In this document: piece after piece, positions 1 to 56,216 of the stretch | How positions within the stretch are numbered: position 1 is the stretch's first letter | How the letters are laid out: each line of letters begins with the position of its first letter | NCBI GenBank assembly: GCA_973895155.1 | Contig: OZ316894.1 | Coordinates: forward strand, 3,744,944-3,808,943 | Origin: Marsupella aquatica | Lineage: Eukaryota > Plantae > Marchantiophyta | Direction: 5' to 3' | Length of the DNA: 64,000 bases | Program-made: the position numbers and the translations under genes | The notes under the pieces: model-generated | Database searches by the model: none | Seen by the model: the letters and a program-made list of their open reading frames with translations, nothing else | What the model was told of the DNA's origin: nothing

Positions 1-112
1 TTTGGAATCAACCACAAACACACCTATTTAGACAGCAGGAAAAGGATGCATCCTGTTTGCGCTAGCCCATAGTGACTCTAAGGACGACTTTCCCTTTCCA
101 TTCTGCACTTAA

Positions 113-127
113 ACCGCCACTGTCCAT
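113..127 (+). repeat. Left TIR of the Kolobok-like element
   Basis: ACCGCCACTGTCCAT, preceded by TTAA; exact reverse complement of 14889-14903. Confidence 0.9.
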
Positions 128-321
128 ATAAATATCAGAAGGGGACAAGTTCCGGTCAGCTCATTCTCTCCAGAGGTGCCCAGCAAAGGCCAGGCTTCCG
201 ATTCTCAGCCAGAGCCGGCTAGCCCCAGCCAAAGGCTCCGCAAAACACTGCGTCCGTAGTTAGTACGTGGCAGTGCTGTGAAACGGGCCTGTGCAATCCT
301 GAGTGGGTTTGTGAGTGGGGT

Positions 322-591
322 GGTCACCGTGAGAAGGTGCTGCCATAGCCATCGACAAGGGGGACCCCACCGAACGAAGAAAGGACGAGAATTTGTTGTT
401 TTCGTCGTGGCAAAGGAAAGTGGGAGTAAACTACTGAAAGCCTACGGCTCTCGTGTCGGTCTGCTAAGGCCAGCTTTGCTCTGCGGCCGGGGGCGGGCGT
501 GGTTCAAGATTGGATTGGGAGCAGCACCATTCATCGATGGCGTGCATTGCCCCGAGAAGGTCACCGTGAGAAGGTGCTGCCATAGCCATCG
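322..591 (+). repeat. 33-bp subterminal direct repeat (322-354 and 559-591)
   Basis: GGTCACCGTGAGAAGGTGCTGCCATAGCCATCG occurs twice. Confidence 0.9.
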
Positions 592-3582
592 GGGTTGATC
601 AGTAGGCTGGGCTGGAAAATCTGCTGCTAAAGCTATGGACGTTCGTCACAGACGTGCTCTGCTGGGCTGGAAAAGCATCCAAGCTAAAAACATTCCAGGA
701 CTTCAAGCATGCTCGCGACACTAATGCTTATCACTAACAAAACTGCATCCTTCTTGACTTGCCGAATCCCGCTGCCAATCCATTCAATGTGGGGGCGGAA
801 AGTCACAAACATCTCTTCAAATTGCACAACATCACACCAACAGTAGTCGCAACTCAGATTTGCAAGTATGGTTCACTGCGTCACATCGCAGCATCCTCAC
901 AGCCCCACTGTCATGGACATGCCCAATGGCCCCGAATGTTGACCATTACCCAGAGCCATGTTGACCATTACGTGATCTTCCAAGATTTTATTGACTATAC
1001 AGCCAATGTGCATAATCGCTCACCATGGGATGCTTCGTCTTACGAAGTGGAGTAGGTTTCAAAGGGGAGAGACCAAATTGGATATGTGCTCTGTTTTTGT
1101 AGAAGCATGCGCGGCAAGGTTGGTAGGAACCGAAGCATTCGACCAACACTCCCGAAAATGAACAAGTCCTTGCGTGCAAAATCTTCCCCTTGAAACTTCA
1201 ATAATTCACAATGAATGCTACTAAGTTCTGGATCCAAGACGCAGCAATCTTCTCACTGACATACACAAGGCTGTTGCATTGCTAAACATGTCTGCCCTAA
1301 AGATATCCCTTTATAATTTCTTTGGAGTACATCCGCTTGATGTACAACCTAGGTCATGGATTTGCATTATCGAAGATGGCTACAAGGAGTACATCTCCTC
1401 CATCGATCCAAGTTGTAGTAGTCGCAAGTAAGTACTGACGTTGTTCAAACACACTTGATAGTAACAAAAGTGCACCAAAGATCAAATGTACTCATAAATT
1501 TTGTGCATCTTGTCACTGCCGCGTCTGTATCCTTTCGAGACAAATCAGGCGAATCGCGACAAGCAAAGTGTAACTACTCCTGCTATCAGCGAGAGATTTT
1601 ATTGATTGTTCTATTATAAGGTGCACCAGCACAACCGAGCTGTCACTCTCAAGTCATTACGGGCAAGATCGTGCTTGATTTCCGTGTCTGCCCATTTGCA
1701 TGCACCAATGAGCGCTTTACGTTTGTTGAACAGAAGATATCACAATAAGGCAAGATCATAATTCAATCTTTCATTGATACCAGACACAGAACCCTCTGCC
1801 ATAGTGGACACAAGCCATCGAGAAAACAGGGTAACAAAACTCTGCGAACCTTCTGTGTCTGTCCCCGCAATGAAGCACAATCTCTTTGAAGAAGGAAAAG
1901 TTTGGCAACGCTTCTCCTTCCTTTGGCCACTTCAACAATCCGAGGTTCTTCGTCAAACATCGGCTTCTGGTACTTGGCAGCAAAAAGCTTGTGTTGCACG
2001 CCTTTTGCAGGCTGTGCTACCCATTGTGGATAAAGCATCTCTTGCCTCAGAGTTGAATTGGAACATAGTGTTGAAGCCTTGGATGACTGAAAACACGATC
2101 GAATGGCCCATGTAAGGGCGGCAGTCAGTGAAGCTCTGAAAACCGCAAAGGTGCTCTCATCACATGACGGTCGCATCAGTAGTGACGCTAAGTTTGAATT
2201 TTCGGAACTAGCAAATCTCAGTTGTTCGCCATTTGATAAGAACAATGTGAAAAGCTTTTCATAAAAAATGAGGCGTGATTGGCTGGTCGGAAGATAGCTT
2301 GACCGCTGGTGCCTCACAGATTATCGATGATAAAGAAGAGTTCACTGAAGGTCGAGGGTGATTGAGGGGCAATTGTTCGTCTACGCAGAAGGTACGCAAT
2401 TTTGGCAAGATAATTATGTAGACAAGCATTTTTTGCAACAATGGACGTACCCCGTCTCTAGCAGCCTTCAGTCACCTGCACACTACAACAATAGGGTAAC
2501 CATCAACGTCAGCCCAAGGTCCAGCAACTCCCAATGCATGTCGCAAATTTGTTGTCTATAACTTGGGGAAACGCGAGGGGAGATGATGAACGTTATTCAA
2601 AATTATGGGCTGAACGGAGAGGCTCCAAGTATGTCAATTCAAACACATGTAGTCTATGAAATTTTTTTATGTAGCTTCTCAATGATGACGGACTGAAAAT
2701 TATGAAAAATGCACAACATCCAACTGAGGTCGGACTGTAGTATGTCCGGTTTTGCGTGATGCAGATCCAAAAAAGTAGCTTATCTTATTAGATTGTATTG
2801 GTTACTCTAGGAGTGAAAGACATTATACTGAGTCTTCCCACATTGAGGCTAGGAAAGTATGCAGGTTCATGGAGGTTATAACAAATCCGATCGACTTCAA
2901 AATGACGGGAGTTGAAAGTGAACTAGGCAGCCTCGTCTCATCCTAGGAGCTGACACAACCTGCAAAACATCTGGGACTCACGTGGGTCAAATGCAACTTG
3001 CCGAGGGAAATGACCAAGTTTTGCATAACTTGCCATCTACATTAGTAGGGTACTGACTTTGGTGAACTACCATAAATCTGGATTCGCTCTAAGGGAAGGT
3101 ATGAACCAAACCATCCACTTAGAGCATAATTGGGAATGGCGTGGGGCTCTTTTTCTCTTACTTGCTGCAATTATTATTCTCAATGTATTTTTCTGCAGTA
3201 CATTTTTCTTCATTGTAATCATGGACCTGGTGTGAACTTCTACATCTTCATTCATAAGTGCATTCTTGCAAACATGACCTTTGAGGTACTAGAAAAATAC
3301 AAGGACATATAATTTACAAATTCTTGTTTGTTGTATTGTTAGGTTGCTAGAGACGGACAAATGGACCGTCCACCGCCTGCGATTGATTATCACCAAGTTG
3401 GAGGCAGTCTTCGATGTAGGCTTCCTGGAAGTCATATACGTAGATACCATGCCTTACAAGGGGCCCTCAACATGTCTCATGGAAAGATTATGGCTTGGCT
3501 CATGGATGGTATGTCCGAGCAAATATCGGCTGTTATTAGTGCTCATCACGGACAGGATGAAGAAGGGGATGTAATGGCATTT

Positions 3583-4057
3583 TGTTGAGCATAGACGACG
3601 ATCGCAACGGCAAGCCCATGAACCATCCAACGCACAATAGTCGACACAAGAGATACGTGGTTCACCTCCTTGAGGCTACGTCCACGGGAACACACAAGAG
3701 AACTTTACTGAACTCTAAGCCCGTCGGCTATACCGAGTCTCCACAGTGTAAGCTCTCCCTATCTCTCAAGTGGCTCCATAACAATGAGCCTTGGTTCTAC
3801 CTCTCCAAGCACACATGCCTCTTATGATATAGTGTGCAACTTAGTTGTACCTAACCACATAGTTGTACCTAACCACATAGTTGTACCTAATCACGTAGTT
3901 GTACCTAACCACATAGTTGTACCTAATCACGTAGTTGTACCTAACCACATAGTTGTACCTAATCACATAGTTGTACCTAACCACGTAGTTGTACCAACCC
4001 ACGTTGTTGTACCAACCACGTCATACCTAACCTAGACGTAAGAGTAAATACCCAACA
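3583..4057 (-). repeat. Copia 3' LTR, with CATTT on both sides like a solo LTR
   Basis: Identical to 8143-8617; CATTT at 3578-3582 and 4058-4062. Confidence 0.95.
3842..4020 (+). repeat. 18-bp tandem minisatellite (~10 units) inside the LTR; also at 8402-8580
   Basis: Unit TAGTTGTACCTAAYCACR; produces the spurious VVPNHI ORF. Confidence 0.95.
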
Positions 4058-5776
4058 CATTTGAGGGTCCAGATGACTTTGGATGGATAAATAATGAACA
4101 CCTTGCTGATGAAGAGGACTTGGGAACCTTTGGGTTGATTGCTCAGGTACTTTTAATAACATTTTTCATTCTACTTTGAACTTGTTTGCCTTCCCTAATC
4201 CCTTTCTTTCCAGATTTTAATTTAATTGGAGTATAACTCTTTCACCATCTCTCCTTTTGTATGTGTTAAAAAAATTGGGTTATCCAAAATTTAGAGGTTT
4301 TATCTTTGCCGATACATCATGTTTTATTACTGTTAACCTATGTTTGTATTTATTTATTGCAGCCATTTTGTGGTGCACCATCCTCCGTTCCAAATGATGA
4401 TGATTCCAATTTTGATATGGCATCACCTTCACATGATGAGCAAGTTCATTCATACTCCAACACTTGTGTATTTGACCGCATTCAGTCTGGGAGGGAGGAT
4501 GCAGAGCACATTCCGGACTCCAACATAGAATTGGAAGATTGTTCTATGATGTCCGATTCCCAGGTAACTGTGTAGTTTAGCTTTTTCAATTAATTTGCTT
4601 TGTGCTACCTTTGTTCCATACATTGATAAGTCATGCAAATGAGGACCTCTAGTTTTTCATAGGTGTACATTAATTTAATGTAAAGCTTAGCTTCAACTAA
4701 TAAACAAATATTGTACCCTAAACCCTAAACAGATGTCAAATGAGGATGGACCCATTTGTTTGCTGGATGTGGCTGATCCAACAACATTTGGATTAGATGA
4801 TATGGTTTTCATGGATTCTGGATTTGAAGAGGCTCCAACTCAGGTATTACATTTTTGCACATTCTTGTACTTGTCATTTGTATCAATTCATAGTCTGTTA
4901 TAATTCCTCCTTGCAATTACTGCATTTTTAGTTAACTTACTAATTATTGTGTGTTGTTTTAGGCATCTACTTCTTCTGAGCAAATAGAAGTTGACTGCCG
5001 TTTGGATTATGAGTATGAGCCATCTTCTCAAGAAACTGAGTCAGACCCTGAGAGTTTGGTGGAGTATGCTTTTTGGCAAAAGAGTAAGGTCCACGAATTT
5101 TTCCAGGAGTTTTGTGTGAATTGTCGTATTGAAGGTTGTGACGGTAAGTACTCGGTTGAGGACATTGTCACACACCATCAGTTGTGGATATTGAAGCTAA
5201 AGTGCCCAACAGGGCATGCACAATCTTTCATGACCGGAGAAAATGAACTTTATAGAGGTATGCAATCTACTCAAATTAATTTTATACTTCTGTCTTTTTG
5301 TACCTAAATGGCTTAATATTGTGTACCTAATCTTGTTTAATTTATGAATACAGGTGTTCCTGCAATCACTGGATTAATTTACCACTCTGCTCTCTCTGCT
5401 GGTCTAACACACAACATGATAAGTGAACTATTCTCTCACATTCAAATCCATGTTCCAAGAAATACACATTGGTTTCGATTTCAAAATGGAGCCCGAAGAG
5501 ACATTGGATGGATTGGAGCAGTATTGCAAGTTTGGGATAATAAGAAACAAAGGTTGCAACGAGGCCTAGCAGAAAGAGACGGTATATGAGTCTTCCTTTT
5601 AGTGCACAAGCTTGTGTTAGTTAATTACATTGAGTAATGAATTTATCATTTTACTAGGTACCATGTTGTTAGAGCATCATGTAAATGGTGATTTTATAAC
5701 ATTATTTTGTGGTTTATGATAATTGTAGGTTCCACTCCATTAATTCTATATGTGGATTGTCGTTGGGACTCATCAC
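4058..5776 (+). repeat. Duplicated copy of the transposase gene segment 8618-10336, lying inside the copia element
   Basis: Line-by-line identical at offset 4560, with identical ORF translations; diverges after ...GGGACTCATCAC (5776 / 10336). Confidence 0.95.
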
Positions 5777-7718
5777 CATTCTGTTGCGGAGTATAAACTG
5801 TGGTGAGATGGCGAGTTATCCCCTGTTCTGAACAGTACTCTTCAAATTCCATTGAAGTGTACTCCCCGCCGTTGTCTGACCTCAGACTCTTCACCCTTGT
5901 ATCCAAACACTTGATCGTGTTTCCAGTCTGATTCTCCACCTGGGCCTTCCACTTCTTAAAAATGGACAAGACATCAGACTTATGCGTCATGAAATAAATC
6001 CACACAAATCTTGAGTAATCATCAATAAATGATACATAGTACAACTTTCCAGAGTGTGAGGGAGTCGGGGATGGACCCCACACGTCACTATGTATGTACT
6101 CAAGAACCGCTTTGGAACGATGAGTTCCAACACCAAAAGCACGACGATGCTGCTTTCCAAGAATGCAATGCTCACAAAACTCTAATTTACAAGATTGCAA
6201 ATCAGAAATGAGTCCATTCTTCCGTAAGATAGCCAAACCCTTCTCACTCATGTGGCCTAGCCGTGAATGCCACAGTTGAGTCATCTCCTCGTGAGACTTG
6301 GTTACATTGGCCTCTCCACATACAGTATTGCCCTGTAACACATACAAATTCTTTTGTCTACTCCCCTTCAAAATCACTGTCTCTCTCGACCTGACTTGAA
6401 GTTCACCATCAATAACGCTCCATTGATGACCATTTGAATCCAACACACCGAGTGAAATCAGATTCTTACGCATGCCAGGTACATACCTGACTCCGGACAC
6501 TATGCGCACAGCGCCATCAAACATTTGAATCTTCACAGACCCAATTCCCTCAATTTGACAGGAGTGATCATTTCCCATCAGAACTGAACCGTTTGAAACA
6601 GAGTAAGAACTGAAAAACTCACGAATGTAACAAATATGAAAAGAGCAAGCACAATCAAGAATCCACACATCATCTGCTCTCCTAGATGACGTGCACAGGG
6701 CATACCCCCGGCTTCATAAAACATACTCATCATTGAGTAAATCAGCTTCTCCATCAGCCCTAGCCACATTTGCCGATGAAGTTTCCGCTGCCTTTCCCTT
6801 ACAGTCTCGCTTGAAGTGTCCAACTTGGTTGCACTTCCAACATGTCACCTGCCTCCTCTGAGGGGATTTACCCTTGGACTTAGATCTGGATTTAGATCTA
6901 AACTGGGTTCTACGGTCCCCAGTTGGTCGCTGCATACTCCTCCCACGGTTAACATTGAGGGCAGCACCAGATGATGAAGGCTATGACGTGATGTGCATCT
7001 TCTGCTGAAGATCATCACTAAGCAGAGAACTTACCACGTCATTGTATGAAATGGTATCCCTATCACGATGCAACAACACTCGTGATAGGGACTGGTAAGA
7101 TGGAGGCAATGAACTAAGAAGCTGCAGAGCCTTCGTCTCATCATTCAAAGTCTCCCCAAGGTTTTCCAAGTCAACGACCATGTCGTTGAAAGCATCCACA
7201 TGGTCTTGCAACTTCGTACCAGATTCCTTCATCCTGAAACTCATCAGTTTGTAGGAAGTGTAGAGCCGGTTCGACAACTCCTTGCGGTGATACTTGCTCT
7301 GCAATTCCGCAAACAAGGACATGCAATCCTTATGTGCACCTAACTGCTTGATGATGGGAGGCATGAGATAGAGTGTAACACACCACACTCCCTGCTCCTG
7401 CATGCGGTCCCATTGTTTCTCATCAACATCGTCTTCACGAGGGCTCAGCAGTTGGCCCATCCCTGACGCATAAAGCACTCCCTTCACTTGCTTCTCCCAT
7501 AGCAAGTAGTCAGAGCGCCCATCATACTTTGTCACTTCATACTTGGGTCCCCCAAGCTTGAAAGTCCCCATCTTCTTCTTTACCGTGAGCTCCGGTAGTA
7601 GTACTGCTTCCTCCACCACACGCCGCACCGGTGATGGTATCGGTGTCACGTGCTCTTCCTCCTGCTCCTCTCTCTGCCCCTGAAACCTCCGCGGTGATCC
7701 TCGTGCTTCAAGTTCCAC
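5777..7718 (-). pseudogene. Copia gag-protease-integrase polyprotein, truncated within the integrase core
   Basis: One reading frame across ORFs 6981-7718, 6714-6935 and 5694-6668, with two in-frame stops. UBN2-type gag, CWKCNQVGHFKRDC zinc knuckle, WILDCACSFH protease, LWHSRLGH, HSDVWGP, RSDNGGEY, then TPQQNG followed by an abrupt junction. Confidence 0.92.
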
Positions 7719-8142
7719 GTCTTGTCAACAACGAATGTTGATCAATTGCACTTGGTGCCGTCACCAAGTCCAACAAGGTAATTGATTTTGCTTAGCCTTC
7801 CTCTTTGCATCAAAGAGCCAATCCCGGACTCAAAAACAATCGTCTTGCCTCAATCTCTCCGTTGAGTCAAAACACTTGACGCTTCTCCCTCCGAGTCGAT
7901 TGCCAACTTTCTTCACAAAATCCAGAATGACGAAAACTTAGATCTCTCTGCACCACGAGCTCCGTTCAACGATTTCTTCACACCGTTAGAAAGCTCTTGC
8001 CCTGATCTATCCGTTGAGCCCATAAACTCCAAGTTCCATGCGATGGAACTCTGGAAAATCCACCAACACTCAACGCTGGAAAAACCGTCATGAAATCCCG
8101 TCACGAACACACGTCACCTCCCAAGCATGCTCTGATACCAAT

Positions 8143-8617
8143 TGTTGAGCATAGACGACGATCGCAACGGCAAGCCCATGAACCATCCAACGCACAATAG
8201 TCGACACAAGAGATACGTGGTTCACCTCCTTGAGGCTACGTCCACGGGAACACACAAGAGAACTTTACTGAACTCTAAGCCCGTCGGCTATACCGAGTCT
8301 CCACAGTGTAAGCTCTCCCTATCTCTCAAGTGGCTCCATAACAATGAGCCTTGGTTCTACCTCTCCAAGCACACATGCCTCTTATGATATAGTGTGCAAC
8401 TTAGTTGTACCTAACCACATAGTTGTACCTAACCACATAGTTGTACCTAATCACGTAGTTGTACCTAACCACATAGTTGTACCTAATCACGTAGTTGTAC
8501 CTAACCACATAGTTGTACCTAATCACATAGTTGTACCTAACCACGTAGTTGTACCAACCCACGTTGTTGTACCAACCACGTCATACCTAACCTAGACGTA
8601 AGAGTAAATACCCAACA
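8143..8617 (-). repeat. Copia 5' LTR
   Basis: TG...CA termini, adjacent PBS, TSD CATTT at 8618-8622. Confidence 0.95.
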
Positions 8618-11600
8618 CATTTGAGGGTCCAGATGACTTTGGATGGATAAATAATGAACACCTTGCTGATGAAGAGGACTTGGGAACCTTTGGGTTGATT
8701 GCTCAGGTACTTTTAATAACATTTTTCATTCTACTTTGAACTTGTTTGCCTTCCCTAATCCCTTTCTTTCCAGATTTTAATTTAATTGGAGTATAACTCT
8801 TTCACCATCTCTCCTTTTGTATGTGTTAAAAAAATTGGGTTATCCAAAATTTAGAGGTTTTATCTTTGCCGATACATCATGTTTTATTACTGTTAACCTA
8901 TGTTTGTATTTATTTATTGCAGCCATTTTGTGGTGCACCATCCTCCGTTCCAAATGATGATGATTCCAATTTTGATATGGCATCACCTTCACATGATGAG
9001 CAAGTTCATTCATACTCCAACACTTGTGTATTTGACCGCATTCAGTCTGGGAGGGAGGATGCAGAGCACATTCCGGACTCCAACATAGAATTGGAAGATT
9101 GTTCTATGATGTCCGATTCCCAGGTAACTGTGTAGTTTAGCTTTTTCAATTAATTTGCTTTGTGCTACCTTTGTTCCATACATTGATAAGTCATGCAAAT
9201 GAGGACCTCTAGTTTTTCATAGGTGTACATTAATTTAATGTAAAGCTTAGCTTCAACTAATAAACAAATATTGTACCCTAAACCCTAAACAGATGTCAAA
9301 TGAGGATGGACCCATTTGTTTGCTGGATGTGGCTGATCCAACAACATTTGGATTAGATGATATGGTTTTCATGGATTCTGGATTTGAAGAGGCTCCAACT
9401 CAGGTATTACATTTTTGCACATTCTTGTACTTGTCATTTGTATCAATTCATAGTCTGTTATAATTCCTCCTTGCAATTACTGCATTTTTAGTTAACTTAC
9501 TAATTATTGTGTGTTGTTTTAGGCATCTACTTCTTCTGAGCAAATAGAAGTTGACTGCCGTTTGGATTATGAGTATGAGCCATCTTCTCAAGAAACTGAG
9601 TCAGACCCTGAGAGTTTGGTGGAGTATGCTTTTTGGCAAAAGAGTAAGGTCCACGAATTTTTCCAGGAGTTTTGTGTGAATTGTCGTATTGAAGGTTGTG
9701 ACGGTAAGTACTCGGTTGAGGACATTGTCACACACCATCAGTTGTGGATATTGAAGCTAAAGTGCCCAACAGGGCATGCACAATCTTTCATGACCGGAGA
9801 AAATGAACTTTATAGAGGTATGCAATCTACTCAAATTAATTTTATACTTCTGTCTTTTTGTACCTAAATGGCTTAATATTGTGTACCTAATCTTGTTTAA
9901 TTTATGAATACAGGTGTTCCTGCAATCACTGGATTAATTTACCACTCTGCTCTCTCTGCTGGTCTAACACACAACATGATAAGTGAACTATTCTCTCACA
10001 TTCAAATCCATGTTCCAAGAAATACACATTGGTTTCGATTTCAAAATGGAGCCCGAAGAGACATTGGATGGATTGGAGCAGTATTGCAAGTTTGGGATAA
10101 TAAGAAACAAAGGTTGCAACGAGGCCTAGCAGAAAGAGACGGTATATGAGTCTTCCTTTTAGTGCACAAGCTTGTGTTAGTTAATTACATTGAGTAATGA
10201 ATTTATCATTTTACTAGGTACCATGTTGTTAGAGCATCATGTAAATGGTGATTTTATAACATTATTTTGTGGTTTATGATAATTGTAGGTTCCACTCCAT
10301 TAATTCTATATGTGGATTGTCGTTGGGACTCATCACGTTCTGGATACCATGGCACTGTTCCCGTGATAGACGTGGCTACTGGTAAGATAGTAGAGCTTGT
10401 AACAATTGACCGGGTTGAGGCAGGGAATTCAGGCGCTATTGAGGCACTTGGTGTACGTCGTGCCTTGGAACATCTTCAGAATGTTGGGATTACAATCAAT
10501 GAGGTTGTTCACGATGATAACAACACTATTGATAATATAATTTATGAATTCAATATTGATAACCAGAAGGATTTGTGGCACAAATGTAAAAATCTATTGA
10601 AGCAGTTTAACAAAGAGTTGGCAAATGTGAAAGAAATAGCACCTGCTTATGGGATTGATGGTGCAACATCCTTGGAGGAATTGGGCAGATTTACAGTTTG
10701 GGTGTTGTCAGATTGGTGTAAGAACCAAAATTTGAGACACACAGGTAATAAGACAGAGTTGGTGTATCGCATTGGAAGACATAGAGGATTGCCAGAGGAG
10801 GACATCACATTGCGTACCAGGAGGCAGTTGAAGTATCCAGAATTGACAGAGAAGCAACTTGGTGATAAGTTGAAGAGTTGGTTTTACTATTGTTGTTGCA
10901 ATGCAAAAGAAAGGTAGGATGATAACTATGGTATTTATTTCCATTTACATGACTTCTGTAAATGTTACTTTTGGATTGAACTGACCTAATTCTTGAGTTG
11001 AATCTTAATGACTATTTGCAGGGGAAATGATGATGCTGCCATGTTGGCTAGGGAGATCATCACTGCAGCTGATCACTGGGCTGGTAACCATGAACTTTGT
11101 AAAAGTTTCCTTCCTCGCAAGTGTTGTGAGGAAGGTGCAATTTATAGTCCATATTATGTCGCGGGTAAGTGAAAATCTACTAGCAATTCTCCCTGGTTGT
11201 AAGTTGCATATGACATGAATAATGTGCTTGGGTTGTTATGTAATATTTTAATATTTCCAAAAAAATAAATTAATGTGGATACTTGTGGATTTTACAGGGG
11301 GCGCTACACATAGAGCTCTAAAGCAATGGTTGCACAAGAATGTCACTGCAGTCAATGTTCGCTTCTACACTAGAGCCCGGGCAAACTTCCTTAGTGAAAC
11401 ATTTCATGGAAATGTCAACAAATATGCTATGAAGAGGATTCATTTTTCCATGACCCACGAAGCCCGCATGGCTTGTGCTGCAATGTGCTGGAATGAGAAC
11501 ATCGGTCGGGAGGTGGTACGAGTTAGAACACGACAGCCTAGTAATACTTGCACTCGTCAACGGCCATCTAGGGTCCGTGACCTTGTTCCTAGAAGCATCA

Positions 11601-12405
11601 GATGGAAGAAAGACGTGGCCCGTATCATATTCGAAAGAGGTGTAGATTATGATTCATGAGCACTTGATAAATTTATTTTGGCTTGGAAAAATCCACACGT
11701 GTTGTTTATTTGACATGTAGGAGATATATAAGTTGTGGATTTTACTATATTCATTTGTCATTTTTCTAGTCCAATATATCACCTTGCCATCTATTCTTTT
11801 TTGTATTAGTGTATTAGTAGGATGTGAAAGTTAGGGTTTAGTACCATGAATGAAAGTTGTGAGTTATGTTGAGATTTGTCACACTTTTGGCAAATGGCCA
11901 TGGCCCCAGTATCCCTCATTTGCCCTGCCTATGAAGAGTAGCATGCATGGCATGGCATTACGGAAGAACCTAGTAGATATAAAAATTGAAACAATTTTCC
12001 AAAATTTGACAATACTCCAAAGGGGAATTGAACCCCTCGTGCTGCCATCCAGTAGGAGTTCCAACCCAGAGGAGGGGGAAGGAGGCACAAGCCAAAGAAA
12101 CACGTGTAAAGAGTAGCACAAAGAACCCATAAATGACAGTACTAGAAATAAACAAATAAATAAACTTAAACAAACACAAGTGAACCTCAACAAGTAAATG
12201 CAGAAAGAGGGATGGTTTTTGCCTTGCATCTCCCAAGTTAGGGTTCTTAATGCACTTGGGAGAAGAAGGAGGCACATGCCAGATAAAAATAATAAAATAG
12301 TATGATAAAACAAAGAAAGCATGGAACAATAAGCAAATTCATACTGATGAAAAGATAACCACACAACCTTAGAAAACTAAAGGCATACACCAACATGGTG
12401 TTTGC

Positions 12406-12991
12406 TTAGGAACTACTAGGTGGCCTGCACTTGTAGTTGGGAAAGAAAGGGTGGCACTTGCAATACAAAGACCCAAAAACTAGTAGAACAAATAACCTAG
12501 ACATGGAAAATAACTCAAGTGATAAGAACAATGATGAAAAGAAAAAAGTAAAAACAACCTCCAAACCTAGCTGTTGTTCACCAGGTAGCTCCCAAGTGGA
12601 CTGCCCTGCACTTGTAACTGCTGCCGGGAAGGGTGTTCTATCTGCAAAACTAGCAACATGTGCTAGTTTGCGATAGACAATGTACCTCTGTCTGCGGGGA
12701 ACAGTTTCAGTGTATGCCCATGCAGCACACATATGAAAAGCCTGAACTGTTGCGGGAGAAAGAGCCTGGGCAGAGTTGAGGTCAGCAAGGTTTTCGTCAA
12801 TTGCTGTGCAAAAATTTGGGAACCTAGCAACAATGTCTACATGTCTCAGAAGTCGGAATTTCCGACGTCCTGGTGGAGGAACTGGCCATGACAAGCGGTA
12901 TATGCCATCTCCATAGGATATCAATTCTGCCGGTCTGTTTTCATGCTCGACACTCCTACAACATGGCCAATTTAAATTCAATGTCATGCAA
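12406..12991 (-). CDS. KolX-like accessory protein (P2X7 C-terminal/ballast-like), main exon; probable upstream exon ending at 13285; 3' end uncertain
   Basis: RRQRYIVYRKLAHVASFADRTPFPAAVTSAGQSTWELPGE resembles the KolX motif RYxAYR...RxxLPxCVVxxIRxxFP. A donor at 13284 and acceptor at 12992 join YCHC...MNNL in frame to SCMTLNLNWPCCR, giving a CxC...C...CC cluster. Convergent with the transposase. Confidence 0.65.
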
Positions 12992-14888
12992 CTATAAACC
13001 TAGAAAAGTTGGGCAGGATACTAGTTGTTGTTCAATGAATACATGTTATATCTTAAATGAGATAATTAAACAAGACCAAACAACTATTATGCAAGACAGT
13101 GCATGATGGAAAGTAAATTGTACACAAACTCATTAAATTTGTGCATGTAAGACCCAAATACATGAGAAAAAATAGGGGCAACTTCTATGCATAAAAACAG
13201 GCCACAAGCAAAGTAGACATGAGCCAAAATAATTTGAAGGGGAATTAGCAATTTCTTCAATTTCTTTTGCAAGATAGAGTTTACCTAAGATTATTCATGC
13301 TGAGTGACCGGAAGGTCGATGAACAATGACAATACAACTGCACAGCATAAGGACGAAATGAATAACATAGTGGGTTGCAAAAGTGACTTGAGCATGCCCT
13401 TTCAAAAAAAAACCTCCTAAACAGAAAGAGTGAATTCAAGGCAACCAAATGAGGATGAGAATGAATGACTATATTCTTTGGTTTGGATCCAGACAACAGA
13501 CCATGTCGGCAAGGGAATATGGAGAGGAAGAACCAGGATCTGACAAGAAATCTTGTCTAGTTTGTAGACAGTAGAGAAGCCAGGGAGATCCGCAGGATTT
13601 TTGAGAGGGTGATCGGGAGCACTGTTAGAGTTCGTGTGGCCAACTAATTAACCAGTACAACATAATGTTCAAGTCAAGCCCTTTTTGTCGTCTACTCGCA
13701 ATCTAGTGTGCTATTGTTGATGGGTGAGTCTCAAACGAGATTGCAGGCGTTTCTCGGGTTCTGAGGCTTCTTGTTTTGGAGCTGCAAAATCGAGATCTTT
13801 GACAGTGAATTTTGAAGACAGAGACTTCTGGGAAAGTGCAAGACTTGTTCGATCGGGACCAAGGCAAGGGAAAGGAAGAACAAGAGATGGATGAAGTTGC
13901 AAAGATGAGCGCAGCAGAATAGAGACGGAAATGATGTGAAGTGTAAATCTTGTTCCATGAGCACTGTCCTGTTCAGGCTGACCTTTCAATTACAGCAATT
14001 ATCGAAGTTGCACTAATCGTTTTTATCCGAATTGACTTTCCACCTACTAGCAATTAATGAACGGCCGAGGCTCAATGAATGGTGAAACCCAATCAGTAGT
14101 GGCACCACCCCGGGGACCACTACAGAGAAAATAAATTAGCGCAGTTGGGTGGACTTATTCCCGACGTCTGGGACAAGATCTTGTGAATGGCAAATTGATA
14201 GTGTGACATATTCCAATTCTAAAACTTTCTCACAAGTGCAAGACGGGCCTGAAGGCCGAGCTCATTCAGTATGATGTCCACCTTGCCAGCCGAACTCGTC
14301 GAAATATAAACGTGAAGGTAACTCCTACTTCGCTGCTGCCGACAACTGAAGCTTGGCATGTGAAATCTCGATCTGTGGATGAACACTCTGCTCATGAAAA
14401 GCAGAATTTGCTGCGTAGTAGAATGGGTATGATAATTGCACGACTCGGCTGCTGAACAGTTATGTGCAGTAATATTGGTTCATAAGGAGTTCACGATCCA
14501 TTCTCCACTTGCACAACATGGGCGGAAGAGAGGTGCAGGACACTTCACATATTCAAGCAATCACGTTCCATGCTATTCAGCAGCATGGGTTCAGGAGAAA
14601 TGGTCGACTCATGTGGCTGAACACTTGCTGAACACTTGCTGAGCACCGGAGAGCAAGAATTGCTCGAGTCTGCTATTGACACTCGCGCAGCATGGGCGGA
14701 GTGAAGCTGGACCAGGACTTCCAATAACTCTCACGCCCTCCGCAAATCTAGTAGGGACACCGAGCGACATTTGCACACCTGACCCGTCCAAAAAGTATCG
14801 GCCACACTGACCGGCCAAAAACTGTCGGGGGATGCCCGGAGCTGGACATGCCCTAAATTAAGAAACCTGGTGGATCCAGGTTTCTTTG

Positions 14889-14903
14889 ATGGACAGTGGC
14901 GGT
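14889..14903 (-). repeat. Right TIR of the Kolobok-like element, with an 11-bp-stem subterminal hairpin at 14860-14886
   Basis: ATGGACAGTGGCGGT followed by TTAA; hairpin AAGAAACCTGG-TGGAT-CCAGGTTTCTT. Confidence 0.9.
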
Positions 14904-17107
14904 TTAAGACAACTTTGGCTAGCAAAAGAAGCTTTTGTGTTCCTTGTTTGATTTTATTGTTTGTTCTACTCAAACTATCATTGTCCTGTTTGGACAGGGG
15001 GCATCTGAGTCCTTGGGGTACCTTTAGGAGAGGGTGCCTTTGTGGGTGAAATTTTGCTGGCAATATTATCTTTCTTCACATTGACCAGCTGGTGGCTCTT
15101 CGTCATGTCCAGATTGTCTTCATGATATTGGTTTAATGCTTCCTCCCATGCCCATTGTACCTTCTTTGTGCTGTGCTTCCCACCCCCATATTTTTGTCTT
15201 TGCTCTCTTCATGTGACACCACTATGATTCATGAGGAGTTTTGGTTGTCTTATTAGCCCTGGAGCCCTTCATGGAGAGGATGGTTCTTTAGTTGCCTGAC
15301 AGACTACCTTGTCTCCTTCAGGTGGGGACTACATTAAAATAGCATTAGAATTGCATTTGGATTAACATACATAGTCCAATTGGGTTGCCAAACTCTCCCA
15401 CTTAGAGTGATCATAGTCTTTCATTTAGTAGACCCACTAATATTGAAACTAACCATTGAGGTATATGCTTGATATACCCCAGAACAAAAAGTGTTACTTG
15501 ATGGGATCCTTCAGTGATCCAAACCATTGACACACCTTAAATCAAAACCCAAAACCCATGGAGTTGATTTGGGAGAAACGTTTGGCATGGGGGCTCATCA
15601 AGCAAATACCTCATACTATTTGCTGTTAACTGCATTTCTTGCCAATACCAGAAATAACTCTTGCTACTTGTTATACATTTACTCTTTGGTCGATCTAGAT
15701 TTAGTATAGACCTGCAGTGAGTCTAATCATAGTCAAGTGCTTGGTTTAAGGTGAGATGAAGATAAAGGGAGAGCTTAGTCTATGGAGACTAGGTTATTTG
15801 CTTCCAACGCATCTGGGAACGCATCATGACCCAAGACAAACCAAGATTAGTAAGTTTTTGTGGAAGAACATTAGGGCATTTTAATCCAATTTGAGAAGCA
15901 TAAGAATTACAGGGATTTTTTTAACCAAATCTGGAAATGTTTTTAGATTGTAGAGTTTAGTGAAACTAGTTTGTGTGTTCCAATAATTGTAGCCTCAAGA
16001 GAGGTGAACTACATAGCTCTTGTGTGACTACTTATGTGTTAAATGTTACTCATGTGCATGCTATTGTATGAGTAACAGTTGGTTATGGAACACTACTCAA
16101 TAAAAATAATAAGCAATAAATTGTTCTTCGCCAAATCAATTGCTTTATTCATTCTTGTCCCATTATGGCATCATTAGCTCGTGAGCAAATAGATTTGTTT
16201 TTGTCCTGTTGCAAGGAAAAACATTCCTTGCATTATGACTTTTTTCATTGAGGAAAAGACCCTACATATCCATCACTTTTCTAACAAACTTATAAATTGC
16301 ATGAAAAATCCAGGAGAAGGAGAGGCAATAGAAAATAAAAAGCTGGGAATCATTCATTCAGTCTTCACGTGTCACAATATTAGGAAGGGATATTTATTCT
16401 ATTCCTTTGGGCACCTTGTTGGTATTATCAAAGCATCATCCCACCCTCCTAACCCTCGAAACAAAATAATCAGGCATCCCTCAAATCCCCAAAGTCGGTG
16501 ACTTTTTCCTGTATCTTGTGACTAAATTATTCAAATGCCTCAGAGGCAAGCTCAAATGAGGGAAAATACATGGGACCCACCTAACCCACCTAAATGTTTA
16601 TATATAAATATTAGGTATTGGTATTTGTTCCCCTGATTGTTTTTGTATCATTTTCACCAGGAGTTGGGAAGGGAGGATTTTGGCCCTATATAGCCAAGTA
16701 AAAAATCACTGGCAATAGGGCTTACCGTTGTAGTGTCATCCTGACTTGTGCAATGAGTAATAATCATTAAAACTTTATATTTAAGTACATTGTACCCATT
16801 ATGAAACATCAAAATAATTTTGTGATGCAAAGTGAAGACATTATGAGCCTGTAGATGTGAACACTGAAGTCACAATGTCTGGATTATTTTTAAAACAAAA
16901 AACAAACAAAAACAAGAGAACATGATTGCATTAGGTTTCTGATAGTATTAAAATATACATATTAAGTAGAGTGTACACAAACTAATTTACTTGTTTCTTT
17001 AAATCTCTCCTCCCATTAGTCATTGTAGGTTGTTGCCAAAGCTCAAGATGACCAACCACTAATTAATGTACCTCCACTTAGTCAAGCTTTGAGTATCCCT
17101 TTTACAG

Positions 17108-17841
17108 TGTAAAGCCCAATGCCTTGCATTGGACAGATCGCGTCAAGGTGAGACACATATGTCTGGGTAAGACAAAGGACAAGCCAAGGAAAAACTGTCA
17201 GGCAAGTTTAAATGGTTAAGGCAAGTGTTAGGATTAACTCTTAGGTCTAGAGTTACGTCTATACCACAGTTAGGGCTAACCTTAGTCGCAAACTAGGTTA
17301 GGTTAGTCATGTTGTGCACTCTATATCCCAAACAATTTTTGCTTTGATAGGAGGAACTCAGGCTCATTGTTATGGACCCATTTGAGAGATAAAAAGAGTT
17401 TATGTTGTGGATACTTGGTATGGCCGGTCAGCCTAGAGTGTAACAAAGCTCTTGAATGTGTGTTGCTGTGGATGTACCCTCAGGGGGAGGTGAGTCATAT
17501 ATCTCTCTATGTCAACTACTTGATTGCAAGCTTGATCATTGGATTGTTATGGGCATGCCATTGTGAATGTCGTCTTTGCTTAACACAAAGATGTCAGGAT
17601 GAGGCAAAGATGCCAAGCAAAGGAAAAGATTGAGACAAGGCAGACATGTCAAGGAGAGGCACTGAAGGAAATGCTATCGGTTGCTTTGGTGTGTTGTTGT
17701 GCTTAACTTATCAAGGGCTTTGTAATTAGTCATGATAAGAGCATTGCTTTGCATCTTAATTATCGCATGGGTAAGCGCCTCCGCTACCACATTCTTTTCC
17801 TTCCTATTTAGGCTTTTGCACTTGCACTAAAGAGACTTACA
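17108..17841. mobile_element. Possible degenerate LTR remnant
   Basis: TGTAAAG...CTTACA ends; no matching TSD and no partner copy. Confidence 0.3.
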
Positions 17842-18533: not shown

Positions 18534-19465
18534 TGTTAGGATTTGACTTGAGTTCCTGGATTAGTTAGTTTGGCCTTACAAAGGTTAGTTACCCCTACAT
18601 TACATTATGATAAGATCCGCTTAGTTTAGACCCACACATCTCGACCCCCTTAGGGTGTATAGGTTAGAGGGAGTGCATTATCTCCCTGGTTCTTCACATG
18701 TACTTTCTTATGAGCTATGTATCCTTTAGGACTTTCTCCTCGTGGTGTCTTGTTGGTGTAGTGTGAGATTGAGTGCTCTCAAGATCATAGAACACGGCCA
18801 CAATTGCAAGTAAAACACGAATAGTAGCGAACCTTTGCTGGAAAGGCCATAGCTTCTTCATAGCCAGAGGGATCTCCATCCTCAATGAGCAAAATAACAC
18901 CGGGATCATTGTTGTGCTTAGCAACGTGAACACGAGGATCTGCAAAACCACATCTATCAAAGGGTGACCAAAATTGGCTCTTGTGGAGAGCCTTGGTTGA
19001 GGAACTGCACTTCTACCAGAAGGACTAGTAGCTTCCTCATCATCACCAAGCTCCACAGTAGCGGGTGCCTCCACTTGTTCCTCCTGATTATCTCGGGGTC
19101 GTGACAAACATTCTTTGTCAAAAACAACATTTTTGCTCACAATTGCATTGCAATCGACATGATCCCACAATTTATAGCCCTTCTGTCCAGGACTAAAGCC
19201 TAGAAAATTATATTTCTTAGACTTGGGATCTAACTTAGACCTGTGTGTTTGTTCAATATGAACATAGGTAGCACAACCAAAAACTCAGAGTCTAGAATAA
19301 TCAGCAGGTTTCTTATACCATAATCCAAATGGAGTCTGCATTAACTTACTGATACCACTTGTAAAAAATTGTCGGCTCCAAACTAGACAACAATATGGAA
19401 CATTAGAGCACTCAATCTCACACTACACCAACAAGACACCGCGATGGAGAAACTCCTAAAAGATC
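18534..19465 (-). mobile_element. Degenerate, internally deleted copia remnant between LTR fragments in opposite orientations
   Basis: Minus strand encodes VFGCATYVHI..RSKLDPKSKK..FLGF..GQKGYKLWD..IVSKNVVFD (copia SH3-like region) and FATIRVLLAIVA (RT fragment). PBS TGGTATCAG at 19349-19357. About 18744-18779 is the reverse complement of about 19405-19440. Confidence 0.8.
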
Positions 19466-22448: not shown

Positions 22449-25400
22449 TTAGTATAACAAGAAATTTACAAGGAGCCCTAGGAAGGAAACAGAGAGCAGT
22501 GGGACAGATATCCTTTGTGCTGCGCTAGTTCCTCGTCCTGGACCTGGTGCAGCATCAACAGAAGGTGGGACTGCTCCTGAGACGGGAGTAGTTGAACCGG
22601 AGGTCGGAGCAGGTGAGTGGGGGGTACTCGGAGACACAGTGGGAGCCATAAGAGTGGAGGAAGTCTCAGAAGTGTAGCCTGGAAAACCCAAATTAGTCAT
22701 CCACAAATTAGTCCACCTTTCATTGCCAGTACGACAACAGTAGCTCCAGTTGCAGGGCTTCAAGAATAGATTGATATGGGAAATTAATCGGTTGCCTTTC
22801 TACCATTTGAGACACTTAGCTACCAAATTGAGCTCTAGTTGGCTTGACCTTCCCTAAAGCAGGGCATCTTTTCTTCGTTAAAACTGAGGTCGTGTGTTTT
22901 AAAGTAAAACCTAAGACCTGTTGCACAATGGTTCAAGAGCAAAAGGAGCTTACAGCCCGATTCTTCGAAGCCCAAAGTTGAGTCTCGGCGGTTGAAAATG
23001 AGATTATGTCCAACCATGAAATTCGCTGCAAAAGTGATGAAAGTCAGAGTGTGAGTGGTCATTGAAGGCACTAAGGTGCTTGGAGCAAACGAGAGCAAAA
23101 GAGGTTGAAATTCAGACAAATAAGACACCGACTTCTGAAACACAAGTCTCTTAAAATCTTTAGAAACCGCTAACCTCCAAAAATGCTCATGGAACCTCCA
23201 TCCAGAACTGCAAGGCAAAAGCCAACCAGGGTTCTAGTGCTCTGCAGTCACCGCGAAAAGAAGGGGTCAGAGATATTTGACGCAAATTCCGGCACATAAA
23301 CTGTGCCCCAGGGTCTAAATCTTCCCAAATCACAATTATCCTTGAAAACCATCGGCGTCAATAAAAATCACAACAAGCGAACCACCTAATCTCATCCCGT
23401 GTGTTAATGTGAATTAAGCTCTTTTGAATCATAATCAATAGAGTTCTTGTAAAAAAAATCAGAACGCACAAAATTCAGTTTGAGAGCATTACTTGTAAGT
23501 AATATGGTATCAAAGGATAGCTAATTTCGAATAAAGCCGCCCCACTCAATTCGAAAACAATGAGGGGAATTTCCACTTGTAAATCACTGCAACAAATCAA
23601 TGGCAAATCTCAGAAATCCGCCAAAAACTTCCGGGAACATCAAAGCTGACAAATGAGGAAAACTGAGCATACATGTCTCCCAGACAGGAAAGGCACAACC
23701 CACCTTGTTTGGTAGCAGGCTTCAAAAGTTTGATCAAATACCGTTTTGTTGTACTTTGTGACCTGTCTGGCAAACTGGAAAGAAGAGTTTGTCAGATGCA
23801 TGTTTAAGCTACAGGCGTCCACAGGTTCATAATTTGGGATCCTTACGGAACTGTGAAAGGCATGTGCATAGAACCCACGATTTAGGCGACTTACTGCATC
23901 AATGACAGCTGTGTAAACAGTTGAGGTCAGAAAGGTCGTAGTAGTTCCCGTGTCAAACAGGCTCACTTCGTTGACAGGTATGCTCTGATTCCCAACTTTG
24001 ATTGAATCCACTCCAATGTTGTAGTGTGGGTACCTGCAAAGTGAGTCGTTGAGATGCACATTTTTTTTCCGACGGCTATAAAAAACTGCAAAAGTTTATT
24101 TGTGCCTCAACTGGACAAGTCAGCCGTGTAATACTCTAAAGAGATGCAAAACATATGAGGTTTACTCCATCTCCGCGATAGTTACTAGGAAACTGGTCAT
24201 GAACAAAAGAAATTGGGATTCCTTGACCATTGGGTTTGCACTCCCAACAAAAGCACAACTATCTAGAAGCCAGCGACCGATCACTCAATGACTAAACTAG
24301 CTACAAGCCAACATGTCACTCAATGAATACCCATGCAAATATAACCTTAATTGAGCATTCTAGAACTCAGAGTAGGAAACAAGTGAACGTCAGGGAAACA
24401 TCTCTCCCAACTTCCTCGAAATGGTAGATCCTTCGTGATTTAGTCACGTGACTATTGTCTGTTTTCGTTGAGAAATGGATTAGATAATATTATTCATGAC
24501 ATTACTCTGCACAGGATGGAAAGTTTATAAAATCTCATACGTGGAATTGTTGATCTCTTTGAAAGGAGTTGACGCTACTGCGGAAGATCCAAAATCTCCA
24601 AATACAATTCTCCCAGACCCATCGACAGAGAAGCACATTGAAAATGAGTCCCCTACAAGTCCAGACTGAGCCAAGATAGAAGGTACCGAGTACGACTGGC
24701 GGCCCAGCCCCATCAGGCCATCCGGGACACTGGTACCATCCACCAGAGACCCAGTTTGGGTCTGACCACATCTGCGAGGGCAACAACAGAAAAAGGAGTC
24801 ATCAGTATTTATGCGATCATGATGCAGTCTCGATACACGTATGGTGAAAAAGTGCAACAATGAAATTGTTCAAAAGTTTTTCTCCAATTAACAGTGCAGG
24901 TTAGTCCAGTATTTTTTAACAAGCATGCATTACGGATATGATGAAAAAGAAGGCAGACCACAACTTGCAACCATAGATGCCAGTTTTTCAGTCAGAGCAA
25001 GCGCTTAGGCCGGCATGTGCAGCCGAAGTTCCCACCCGAGAGATGAGTCTTACCCGAGAATAATGGATGTCGTTATGTCTATCTGAGCGCCAATGTTAGA
25101 CGTAAGGTGAATGTCATCTTGATAAACTGTACCGCTTGTCGTCGTGTTAGCAGTCGCGTAGGCAATACCGTATTGGCACTGTCCGCTGTTTGGGAGATTC
25201 TGATCTTGGCACGTCGAAAAAATTGACGAACATTTGCTGCTACCGCAAGTCAGAGCTTTGCTAGTGGTGGATTGTGAAGGAGCGTACACATTCAACGACG
25301 GCTGTAGCCACGCACAAGTCAATTATGAGAAACTCGAAGCCAAAATACATTGACTCTCCAGACGATCAATGGATAGGCAGCAAGCAGACCAGAACGGCCA

Positions 25401-53631: not shown

Positions 53632-54731
53632 TGTCCAGGTGACTGTGTTTTCTGGCAAGAGCATGTTGGCTCTTTTGAAGTTAACCTTGCATGCTTATAA
53701 GTTCTACACTAAAATTAAAATGATAATTCTAGTAACAAGGGTAGTGGGTATTAAGAAAGGTTAAGGTAAAACTAAAATACTGTTAAACTCTATTTCACCA
53801 TACTTGCGAACCAACACATCACGAAAATTAGTTTTCTTACGACATATGATCCTAATATCTCCAAGAGAAAATGAAACAGGAATATCATTCGGACTCCTAT
53901 TCAGATCCATGACTTCAATAAAGGACAAAGATGATGCACTCCCACTCCTCTCGGTACGACACCACTGGGTATATTATTGGCTCGTTAGAAACCATAACAG
54001 CAGTTGCAAACTGAGTTCCAAAATGATAGGTTAGATGTTGCCTCATAGATGGTTTGTCTAAAAGATGGACTCTAATCAAAAACGGATTACGAAGGGGAAG
54101 ATCAGGGATAATTCTCTCTCCTGGATTCATGATGGCTCTCCTATTCCTTTGCTATCCGGACCAAAGGACGCCCCACCCCTATATTCCCAAAGAAACCTTA
54201 TTCCCTAAGGTCCCATCTATAAATCTACCACTCATTCCTTTGCTATCCGGGCCAAAGGACGCCCCACTACTATGTTCAAGACACAAAAGAGCTTCACAAC
54301 CATGAATGATAAACACTACGGAATGAGGGGAGAGTGCCCCTCACCACTTTATTTATAGTGCACACCAAGAGGGCATGGATCAAGCCCAAGCACTTGGATA
54401 AAGGCCAAGTGTCAAACATCTAATACCTAAGAGTGTGCTAGTACTATTCATAGTTGGTGAAACTACTTTAGTAGGTGGAACTACCATGCGTTGGTGGACC
54501 TACTATGCATTGGTGGACCTACTGTGCGTTGGTAGAACTACTATGCGTTGGTGAATATTATTGTAGTTGGTGGAACTACTCATATGCATTGGTGGAACTT
54601 CTATAGTTCGTTAATATAGCTAAAGAAGTTTAATAAAGTTTAAATTTAATAATCTAACTACTAAATTACCTATATAATCTATAGCATATTAAAACAAATA
54701 ATTTTTTATAACTTAAGAGAAAATCACGACA
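53632..54731 (-). repeat. Gypsy 3' LTR, containing ~21-bp TTGGTGGAACTACTATGCG repeats
   Basis: Pairs with 61513-62611. Confidence 0.95.
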
Positions 54732-56216
54732 CATCACCCCTACCAAACCTGTGCATCCTCCGGTATGCACCACACCTAGAATCGCTACATGTCTTCTTCA
54801 TCTAAAGCCTCATAGTCGTCGGGTTCAAACTCTTCCTCTGTCACAAATCGAGTTCGTCGTTTAAACAATTTCACTCACTTCCCTGCATAGGGATTACGAT
54901 GAATTGCTCCATCAAGTTCTCTTACCACATATGTTGCATTAGGACGAACCTCCTCCACCACAAATGGTCCTCTCCAACGACGTGCAAACTTCTTCAGAGT
55001 AGAATGTTGCTGTTCCAACCCTCCCTCATAGATCAAGACCCAATCTCCATTCTGGATGGGAATTGGTCTCAAATGATGGGTCTTGTCAAATCGTTCCTTA
55101 TTCTTCTCACAAGCCTCCTTTAGCCTTAGTAACGCCTCCTCAATCTTCTCCTTGGTCTGGCTAAAGTGCTCAATCCTTCGCTCCAGCAACTTTTCTCGGG
55201 AGATTCTATCTTGCCATTCAATCATCCTCCAACTCTGAACATTTTCCTCAATCGGCATCAAAGGCAAATGTCCAGAGACTAATTCGGCAGGCGTAATTCC
55301 TGTTGTGGTAGTGCATGTCATTCGATCTGCCAAAAGAGCAAATGGTAGAAGATTGGGCCAAAGCGATGGTTTTCCTCGACAAGATTTCACCAAGGCATTC
55401 ACTATCGGTGAGTGCCCTCGCTCAATCTTTCCATTTCCTTCTGGATTGTAGGCAGTAGTGAGTTTGAGCTTGATGTTGAACTGGTCGAAAAATTCTGCAG
55501 CCTCTTCAGAATTCAGCTCTCCTCTATCTGCTCTCATTTGCACAAAACAACCATGACGTGCTATAACGTCTTCAAGTATGAACCTGCATACTGCTTCTGT
55601 AGTGTTAGAGGTTAAAGCCCTTCCTTCAACATAAGAAGATAAATCTTCTCTTGCAAGGACAAGGTACTTTGCCCCCCTAATTCCCCATGGCATGTGCACC
55701 ACATCTACTGCCCATTGAAAATGTAAAGAAAGAGGACTAGTGGGATTAAGTCCATCTCTAAACCGAACTTTAGAGTAATACTGACAACTCTCACAAGATC
55801 CAACATAGGATTTTACATCCACATACATGTCTGACCACCAGTACCACCTTTGAACCCGCTCATAGGTAGCTCTAACTCCTCGATGTCCTGCTTCAACAGC
55901 ATCATGAGAATCCCATAAAACTCTCTTCTTCTTTTCATCTGTATCAAGAACTCTACAAGGAACATGTCCTTTCTTCAAAGACCTTCTCCATAAAACACCA
56001 TCCTTGAGCATGAACTTGTAAGCCTTCTTCCGTAATTGTTGAAACTTCTCTTCTATCATTTCAACAGGCCTTTGAAGAGTACTAAGGTACCTTCCAATCA
56101 AGAGCAACTCTCCAGAATAGAGCTCCTCTCGAAATGTTAAGACCTCAAACTCTCCATTCATCACTTGAACTGCCTCCACTTCATTCTGATCATAGCGGGC
56201 TCTTGAAAGCATATCT

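Follow-up and report, generated by a model that had tools for sequence, protein, structure and literature searches.

A TTAA-flanked element in the liverwort Marsupella aquatica that probably encodes a Kolobok-type transposase and is interrupted by a composite copia insertion

The window examined here, meaning the whole 64,000-nucleotide stretch at positions 3,744,944 to 3,808,943 (forward strand) of contig OZ316894.1 in the Marsupella aquatica assembly GCA_973895155.1, contains near its left end a transposable element bounded by TTAA and by terminal inverted repeats (TIRs); it spans 14.8 kb as found and is 9,751 bp long without an insert that it carries. Between the ends lie a transposase gene, a convergent open frame on the opposite strand and, within the first exon of the transposase gene, a copia retroelement with two long terminal repeats (LTRs) (Table 1). 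The initial annotation had called the element complete; both of its ends are indeed intact, but exon 1 is interrupted.

TABLE 1 Features of the element by position in the window (aa, amino acids of the spliced transposase)
Feature	Position	Strand	Support or remark
Left TTAA	109..112	.	Would be the target duplication if this is 4 bp; contigs start at 109 in runs X1 and X4
Left 15-bp TIR, begins AC	113..127	+	
Two identical 33-bp direct repeats, left subterminal (322-354, 559-591)	322..591	+	Repeat search
Exon 1, 5' part, aa 1-74, strand-helix-helix N terminus common to Riccia relatives	3361..3582	+	aa 4-61 versus P0001, E 4e-9
copia LTR, left copy, 475 bp, TG..CA; 5-bp target duplication 3578-3582 / 4058-4062	3583..4057	-	
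Exact duplicate of 8618-10336 (exon 1, 3' part, to start of exon 6) between the LTRs	4058..5776	+	100% identity
Partial copia interior: gag, protease region, GAG-pre-integrase, truncated integrase	5777..8142	-	PF14223, PF22936, PF13976, PF00665
copia LTR, right copy, identical to left; 5-bp duplication 8618-8622 follows	8143..8617	-	
Exon 1, 3' part, aa 75-102	8623..8706	+	LTR-free joint 3577>4058 in 4/4 runs
Exon 2, aa 103-169, acidic linker, without homology support	8923..9123	+	
Exon 3, aa 170-206, acidic linker	9293..9403	+	
Exon 4, aa 207-304, Cys/His cluster, predicted zinc site	9523..9817	+	
Exon 5, aa 305-380	9914..10141	+	
Exon 6, aa 381-588: D390, D456, D475-x-x-H478, SAP-like insertion	10289..10913	+	
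Exon 7, aa 589-636: zinc finger H607, H612, C615, C623/624	11022..11164	+	
Exon 8, aa 637-756: catalytic E670, W-N-E-N motif at 701, stop	11298..11659	+	
Convergent 197-codon open frame; ATG at 12987; core rich in guanine and cytosine (GC) at ~12560-12987; tentative divergent KolX	12406..12999	-	
Perfect 10-bp inverted repeat, 5-nt loop, 3 bp inside right TIR	14861..14885	.	
Right 15-bp TIR, ends GT	14889..14903	-	
Right TTAA	14904..14907	.	

The TIRs are perfect over 15 bp, each just inside a TTAA, and lose their similarity beyond that length. They form the sole TTAA-flanked inverted repeat of at least 9 bp in the window, no other longer than 8 bp having been found among all pairs of its 225 TTAA sites, and the chance expectation of a TTAA-flanked 15-bp inverted repeat in the window is about 3e-5; the ends proposed by the initial annotation, 14.8 kb apart, were thus borne out. 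Over 11 choices of boundary, flank duplications exceeded 1 bp in two cases only, TTAA, which leaves termini AC..GT, and TA, which leaves AA..TT, and the equal standing of these two readings, already pointed out in the initial annotation, was confirmed. The longest flank duplication was 4 bp, and the duplication of about 8 to 11 bp that characterizes MuDR and Mutator-like elements (MULEs) was found at none of the boundaries. Five public runs matched part of the right half; four of them, from two studies, had 0.68-0.80 of the words and were compared with the element (one of these runs may be the window's own sample), and the fifth, X5, with a share of 0.17, was left out. In X1 and X4 (at least two of the four, among the contigs listed), a contig starts exactly at the left TTAA, and we infer that this is an assembly branch point at which several copies of the element share TTAA but differ in flank. 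The inverted repeat beside the right TIR has no counterpart that could be seen at the left end.

Once 3583-8622 is removed, eight exons separated by seven GT-AG introns of 96-216 bp give 2,271 nt that encode 756 aa with a single, terminal stop, and the unbroken frame described in the initial annotation was reproduced. Exons 1 and 4 to 8 are supported by colinearity with relatives, and exons 2 and 3, which form the acidic linker, are without such support. In the stretch from the second D to the E, the protein has the C/DxxH signature, as D475-L-W-H478, and between DxxH and E it has the zinc finger listed for exon 7; the segment after the first D, aa 390-432, contains no CCHC finger. The H-W..H..C motif occurs in 43 of 62 core sequences, many of them partial. 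From DxxH to the finger the gap is 129 aa in the window protein, 127-155 aa in the measurable liverwort, metagenome, prasinophyte-labelled and Chara rows, and 223-399 aa in the Closterium rows and two unnamed rows. Four Closterium relatives (P0105, P0117, P0118 and P0179) hold an insertion of 276-399 aa at this place.

Among liverwort and metagenome proteins, the insert between DxxH and the finger scores as a SAP domain (19 of the 43 members in the alignment, E<=0.1, best value 5e-9); it lies above the Pfam cutoff in P0002, P0010, P0034 and P0036 and below it in the window protein (E 0.005). Judged from these profile scores, a SAP-like insertion in the predicted catalytic core is a feature that the initial annotation missed. 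SAP domains bind DNA, and the insertion may have a role in holding the transposon ends or the target; with the N-terminal strand-helix-helix and the Cys/His region, it would make up the DNA-binding parts of the protein. The main text of PMC9587614 makes no mention of SAP. A Pfam search of 15 further open reading frames in the noncoding-looking regions of the element and of 3 in its left arm returned nothing credible.

Motif order, motif spacing, the zinc finger and structural neighbors agree in identifying the transposase as Kolobok-type, in accordance with the initial annotation. In the available part of PMC9587614, the marks of Kolobok are RR..YY ends with a duplicated TTAA, the C/DxxH signature and, ahead of the final E, a zinc finger that is absent from MuDR, P and hAT; the same source includes KolobokP families with 3- to 5-bp duplications and assigns families to Kolobok by homology. 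By eye, the order of motifs in the window protein matches the Kolobok alignment in its Data S5, and by hand count the first and second D are 66 residues apart in the window protein, 66 in Kolobok_1_OwFu and 67 in Kolobok_1_XT. In an AlphaFold model of the Riccia relative P0001 (predicted local distance difference test [pLDDT] 82, predicted template-modeling score 0.72), the three acidic residues follow strands 295-299 and 360-365 and fall within helix 578-590. Neighbors of this model in the ESM Atlas are PF20700 clusters, namely, cnidarian with THAP (TM score, 0.64), chordate, mollusc with a DEDDh exonuclease, arthropod with a YqaJ exonuclease, and parabasalid. The two exonuclease sets, DEDDh and lambda-type, resemble those of the KolobokD and KolobokE lineages in the available part of PMC9587614, where trichomonads are listed as a host. 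We conclude, with a probability of roughly 0.85, that the element encodes a 756-aa Kolobok-type DDE transposase and likely moved by cut and paste into TTAA sites of the liverwort genome before copia interrupted it.

Relatives of the protein are found in liverworts and in green algae. Exon 6 alone, used as a query, matched 10 proteins, 8 of them from Riccia sorocarpa; a profile search matched 28, all from Riccia, and the profile run against a larger representative set matched 1,091 (E<=0.001), the listing giving 150 of these. Twenty hits chosen by hand for source look-up, and so not a random sample, came from Chara braunii (9), Closterium (4), Riccia (3), Calypogeia fissa (1) and a cluster labelled Pyramimonas/Prorocentrum (1), with 2 unnamed. 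The closest named relative, the Calypogeia fissa protein, is 64% identical across 332 aa; P0001, an annotated protein of Riccia, is colinear over aa 189-748 (45.7% identity; E 6e-160) as well as over the N-terminal segment given in Table 1, and Chara P0059 is 29% identical. Of 180 sequences, the 62 with at least 200 core positions covered (two near-duplicates dropped, no outgroup) went into a quick tree, which joined the window protein with Calypogeia at a support of 100 and this pair with the Riccia rows at 97; Chara and Closterium lay further out, and unnamed metagenome proteins branched beside the liverwort clade. This placement by itself points to a leafy liverwort as the likely host. No relatives of the element were found among metagenome contigs and viral contigs. 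Because the next relatives occur in Chara and Closterium, descent of the lineage from green algae is probable. The land-plant lineage proposed in the initial annotation gains support from Calypogeia and Riccia, but its range is wider and takes in Chara, Closterium and one prasinophyte-labelled cluster. The Riccia "SAP domain-containing" hypotheticals (e.g., R1sor_008396), Calypogeia CAM6094701.1, Chara CBR_g34551 and Closterium CAI5480311.1 belong to the same protein family, whose members are mostly annotated as hypothetical or SAP proteins, with a few automatic transposase labels and none reading Kolobok. An 891-aa relative in the cluster of P0050 is labelled both Pyramimonas and Prorocentrum, which suggests contamination or transfer.

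What had been described as a copia insertion does contain copia LTRs and a copia interior but is composite, since it also holds an exact 1.72-kb copy of transposase exons and introns. Positions 3582-5776 and 8142-10336 are the same 2,195 bp with zero mismatches, each block consisting of the 475-bp LTR, the 5-bp target duplication and a 1.72-kb piece of the transposase gene, exons and introns alike. The integrase stops at the 5776/5777 junction, where a single clean join leads from host exon to integrase. No reverse transcriptase was found in the open reading frames of the copia interior at 5777-8142, and a primer site in this interior is presumably of the tRNA-Met type. In 4/4 runs, a joint leads from 3577 to 4058 and skips 480 bases (with 5 ambiguous letters), which corresponds to exon 1 without the LTR, and the view that the gene was intact before the retroelement arrived is thereby upheld. 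Other joints in the runs swap intron sequence between matching exons, as expected of diverged family members. We suggest that copia inserted antisense in exon 1 and later suffered an internal break, which was mended by a copying process that began at the other LTR, ran through 1.72 kb of the transposase gene and rejoined within the integrase gene; tandem duplication followed by recombination between LTRs would give the same product. The LTR holds a tandem array of 18-bp units (3839-4030 and 8399-8590), and its family is very abundant in the four runs.

The convergent gene of the initial annotation exists as a minus-strand frame of 197 codons, but its likeness to KolX is tentative and comes from one motif drawn up post hoc. 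The frame is preceded by a pyrimidine-rich AG acceptor at 12999, and an open frame of this length was reached in 8 of 500 shuffles. Its GC content is 0.48, against 0.33-0.35 in the flanks, and by codon position it amounts to 0.57/0.50/0.36, compared with 0.52/0.40/0.38 in the transposase gene. When all six frames of the window were searched for the motif, modelled on a KolX-like C terminus, this frame gave the single match; among 1,000 shuffles, 1 contained it. No homolog fused to the second gene was present among the stored homologs (tblastn; best E of 0.054 outside the transposase exons). The frame is probably coding, for an accessory protein, and the odds that this protein is a divergent KolX are about even.

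Several observations weigh against a straightforward assignment to Kolobok. The tree was a quick one, built without reference Kolobok or MULE sequences and accompanied by long-branch warnings; the fold model is that of the Riccia relative and not of the window's own protein; the element was seen at full length at one locus, and no empty site was seen, the reads having been compared over window positions 1-8142; and the second gene matched nothing in Pfam (E<=10), the protein collection (24 candidates of 80-258 aa), the PDB sequences or the ESM Atlas (best score of 0.82, below the bar). With TTAA as the duplication, the termini AC..GT are not RR..YY, which are obtained only if the duplication is TA, and the two readings are formally equal; since TTAA duplication and RR..YY termini cannot both hold, we file the element as a Kolobok-related variant and not as a canonical member. 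The break with the terminal rule is also what would be seen if this were a Mutator-like (MULE/Phantom-type) element with short TIRs, in which TTAA is part of the element's own ends. Pointing the same way, the Pfam search suggested in the initial annotation did match a transposase family, but the only one, PF20700 (13 of 43 members, E<=0.1), is named Mutator-like; one Chara relative has the automatic UniRef label "MULE transposase"; and the best solved fold for the P0001 model is ISCth4 (Z 13.0, root mean square deviation 4.5, 258 residues aligned), which we take to be an IS256/Mutator-family enzyme, followed by P and Hermes. The fold thus fails to separate Kolobok from MULE, and these matches would place the modeled protein in a clan and not in a superfamily. 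Set against a Mutator-like origin are the flank duplication, never above 4 bp, the zinc finger between DxxH and E, which MuDR lacks according to the available part of PMC9587614, and the domain sets of Kolobok lineages carried by the Atlas neighbors; moreover, PF10551 (MULE) was not among 25 of the 26 families for the 43 members, although the lack of such a match is compatible with a MULE. Given the lack of a long duplication and the presence of the finger, we regard a MULE as very unlikely.

A Kolobok-type element could still have reached liverworts by horizontal transfer and not by descent from green algae, or the window could be non-plant DNA. No moss, hornwort, fern or seed plant was named among the 28 profile hits or the 20 look-ups, one cluster mixes prasinophyte and dinoflagellate labels, and the unnamed metagenome proteins adjoin the liverwort clade; nevertheless, two liverwort genera that are far apart have relatives on contigs of chromosome scale, streptophyte algae supply the next named relatives, and the window itself is rich in LTR retroelements and holds a TAXi_C/aspartyl protease fragment, so that we think transfer or foreign DNA improbable. 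There is somewhat more to be said for the 2.2-kb duplication between the LTRs being an assembly error, with the element real and the locus an ordinary copia or solo LTR, as the two blocks show no mismatch and none of the contigs and joints listed bridges the 5776/5777 junction. Template-copy repair would also yield identical blocks, however, and the join is single and clean, probably with a 3-bp microhomology if the integrase kept its usual next codon; an assembly error is on balance unlikely. Opinion is most nearly divided over the second frame, which might be some other accessory gene, a captured fragment or noncoding sequence. Besides the blank database and fold searches, a single-sequence model of its protein reached a pLDDT of 40, with generic helical matches among which P2X7 was not listed, and it is doubtful whether all cysteines of the ballast-fold cluster are present. 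The length of the frame, its GC contrast, its transposase-like pattern of GC by codon position and the motif that is unique in the window, though post hoc, speak against this reading, and we place the chance that the frame is something else slightly short of one-half.

Elsewhere in the window, retroelement sequences are prominent. Within the 3.2-kb left arm of the element, 1360-2180 is covered in the runs by contigs of greater depth and by diverged variants and is possibly a nested repeat, and a 185-codon minus-strand frame at 1763-2320 had no Pfam match. Just outside the element, 15760-16061, 17315-17588 and 18715-19284 contain degenerate (~70%) opposite-strand relatives of the copia LTR and a retroviral SH3-like fragment. 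An aspartyl protease/TAXi_C fragment at 23640-24095 is probably a piece of a host gene. A gypsy-like LTR element occupies 53632-62611, with 1.1-kb LTRs that are 98.3% identical and long gag-like, reverse transcriptase/RNase H and integrase frames, and a further copia fragment is found at 62963-63921.

By analogy with its family, the Kolobok-type transposase would use its N-terminal strand-helix-helix and its Cys/His region to bind and pair the two TIRs, probably aided by the SAP-like insertion, and would cut by means of D390, D456 and E670. The 9.75-kb element would then be joined to a TTAA target with a 4-base stagger, and a 2-base TA stagger with AA..TT ends would give the same sequence. No full-length protein can come from the interrupted copy, yet a transposase supplied in trans by an uninterrupted one could act on its intact ends and mobilize it.

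Kolobok elements have hitherto been described from animals, fungi, protists and algae. Few cut-and-paste superfamilies are as a rule ascribed to land plants, and the literature that we searched describes no Kolobok family in them, in agreement with the initial annotation that Kolobok is not a recognized land-plant superfamily. Searches for Kolobok in bryophytes, Chara braunii, Physcomitr*, Marchantia, liverworts and land plants found no description, although a Repbase or Dfam entry may exist; the match for Marchantia and liverworts mentions Kolobok for tetrapods only, and the word is absent from the supplements of the Blasia (as far as available) and Apopellia genome papers and from the other liverwort genome papers or supplements as far as these were available. 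The available part of a paper on spinach counts Kolobok among 67 miscellaneous elements, without detail. The plant Koloboks in the available part of PMC9587614 come from a chlorophyte and rhodophytes only. The survey in PMC12973397, in the part available, screened 1,007 plant genomes for 17 superfamilies, Kolobok included, and reported active clusters in seven, none of them Kolobok; it worked with a 12-kb length limit and detection by domain profiles. A liverwort/streptophyte Kolobok lineage with atypical ends and a SAP insertion is thus apparently undescribed, and the element widens the range of a known superfamily, of which it is a variant, without amounting to a system of a new kind. A broader picture would combine an undescribed green-plant Kolobok lineage running from streptophyte algae to liverworts and lost from vascular plants, a SAP domain in the catalytic insertion, a break with the RR..YY/TTAA rule (possibly through a 2-base stagger), a plant KolX with a P2X7-ballast domain, and copies still mobile in a living liverwort; as a whole, this remains doubtful. 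A multicopy family in two liverwort genera, with algal relatives, would reveal a gap in plant repeat libraries, would identify as transposases the products of dozens of Riccia gene models now called "SAP domain-containing" and could serve to test, with dates, how a transposon lineage persisted vertically or was lost as plants moved onto land. From an intact copy one would obtain a TTAA-targeting transposase native to plants, and its cut geometry could settle the definition of Kolobok ends.

Among known systems, piggyBac has TTAA target duplication and short TIRs in common with the element, but it is outside the C/DxxH superfamilies in the available part of PMC9587614; an identity with piggyBac was rejected, as the window transposase has DxxH and piggyBac is absent from the structural neighbors listed. 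The only plant-kingdom Koloboks named in that part of PMC9587614 are algal: Kolobok_1_MicRcc299 of Micromonas has an extra CCHC finger in its core, unlike the window protein, and Kolobok-1_CCri of a red alga shares the H-W-x-G-D-H form of the finger but encodes a RecQ helicase, which was not seen in the window element. Traits of KolobokP, KolobokE, KolobokD and KolobokH were likewise not encountered, there being no terminal direct repeat in the element and no nuclease or helicase Pfam match in its open reading frames. The closest cores in Data S5 of PMC9587614, judged by eye only, are those of Kolobok_1_OwFu, Kolobok_16_CGi, Kolobok_1_MyEd and the Naegleria Koloboks, which share D-x-R following the first strand, the pair H-D at the second D, D-x-W-H and the D-to-D spacing but are without the long insertion of the window protein. 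By hand count, about 129 aa with a SAP-like domain separate DxxH from the finger here, against about 65 in Kolobok_1_XT. In relation to the Kol0/Kolobok0 lineage (type Kolobok-1_XT), as described in the published material available, the window element differs in its AC..GT ends, in having no THAP match, in a second gene that is only tentatively KolX and in its land-plant host, but it shares with that lineage the flanking TTAA, short TIRs, a DxxH DDE core with a zinc finger before E and no CCHC finger after the first D, and an organization in two genes.

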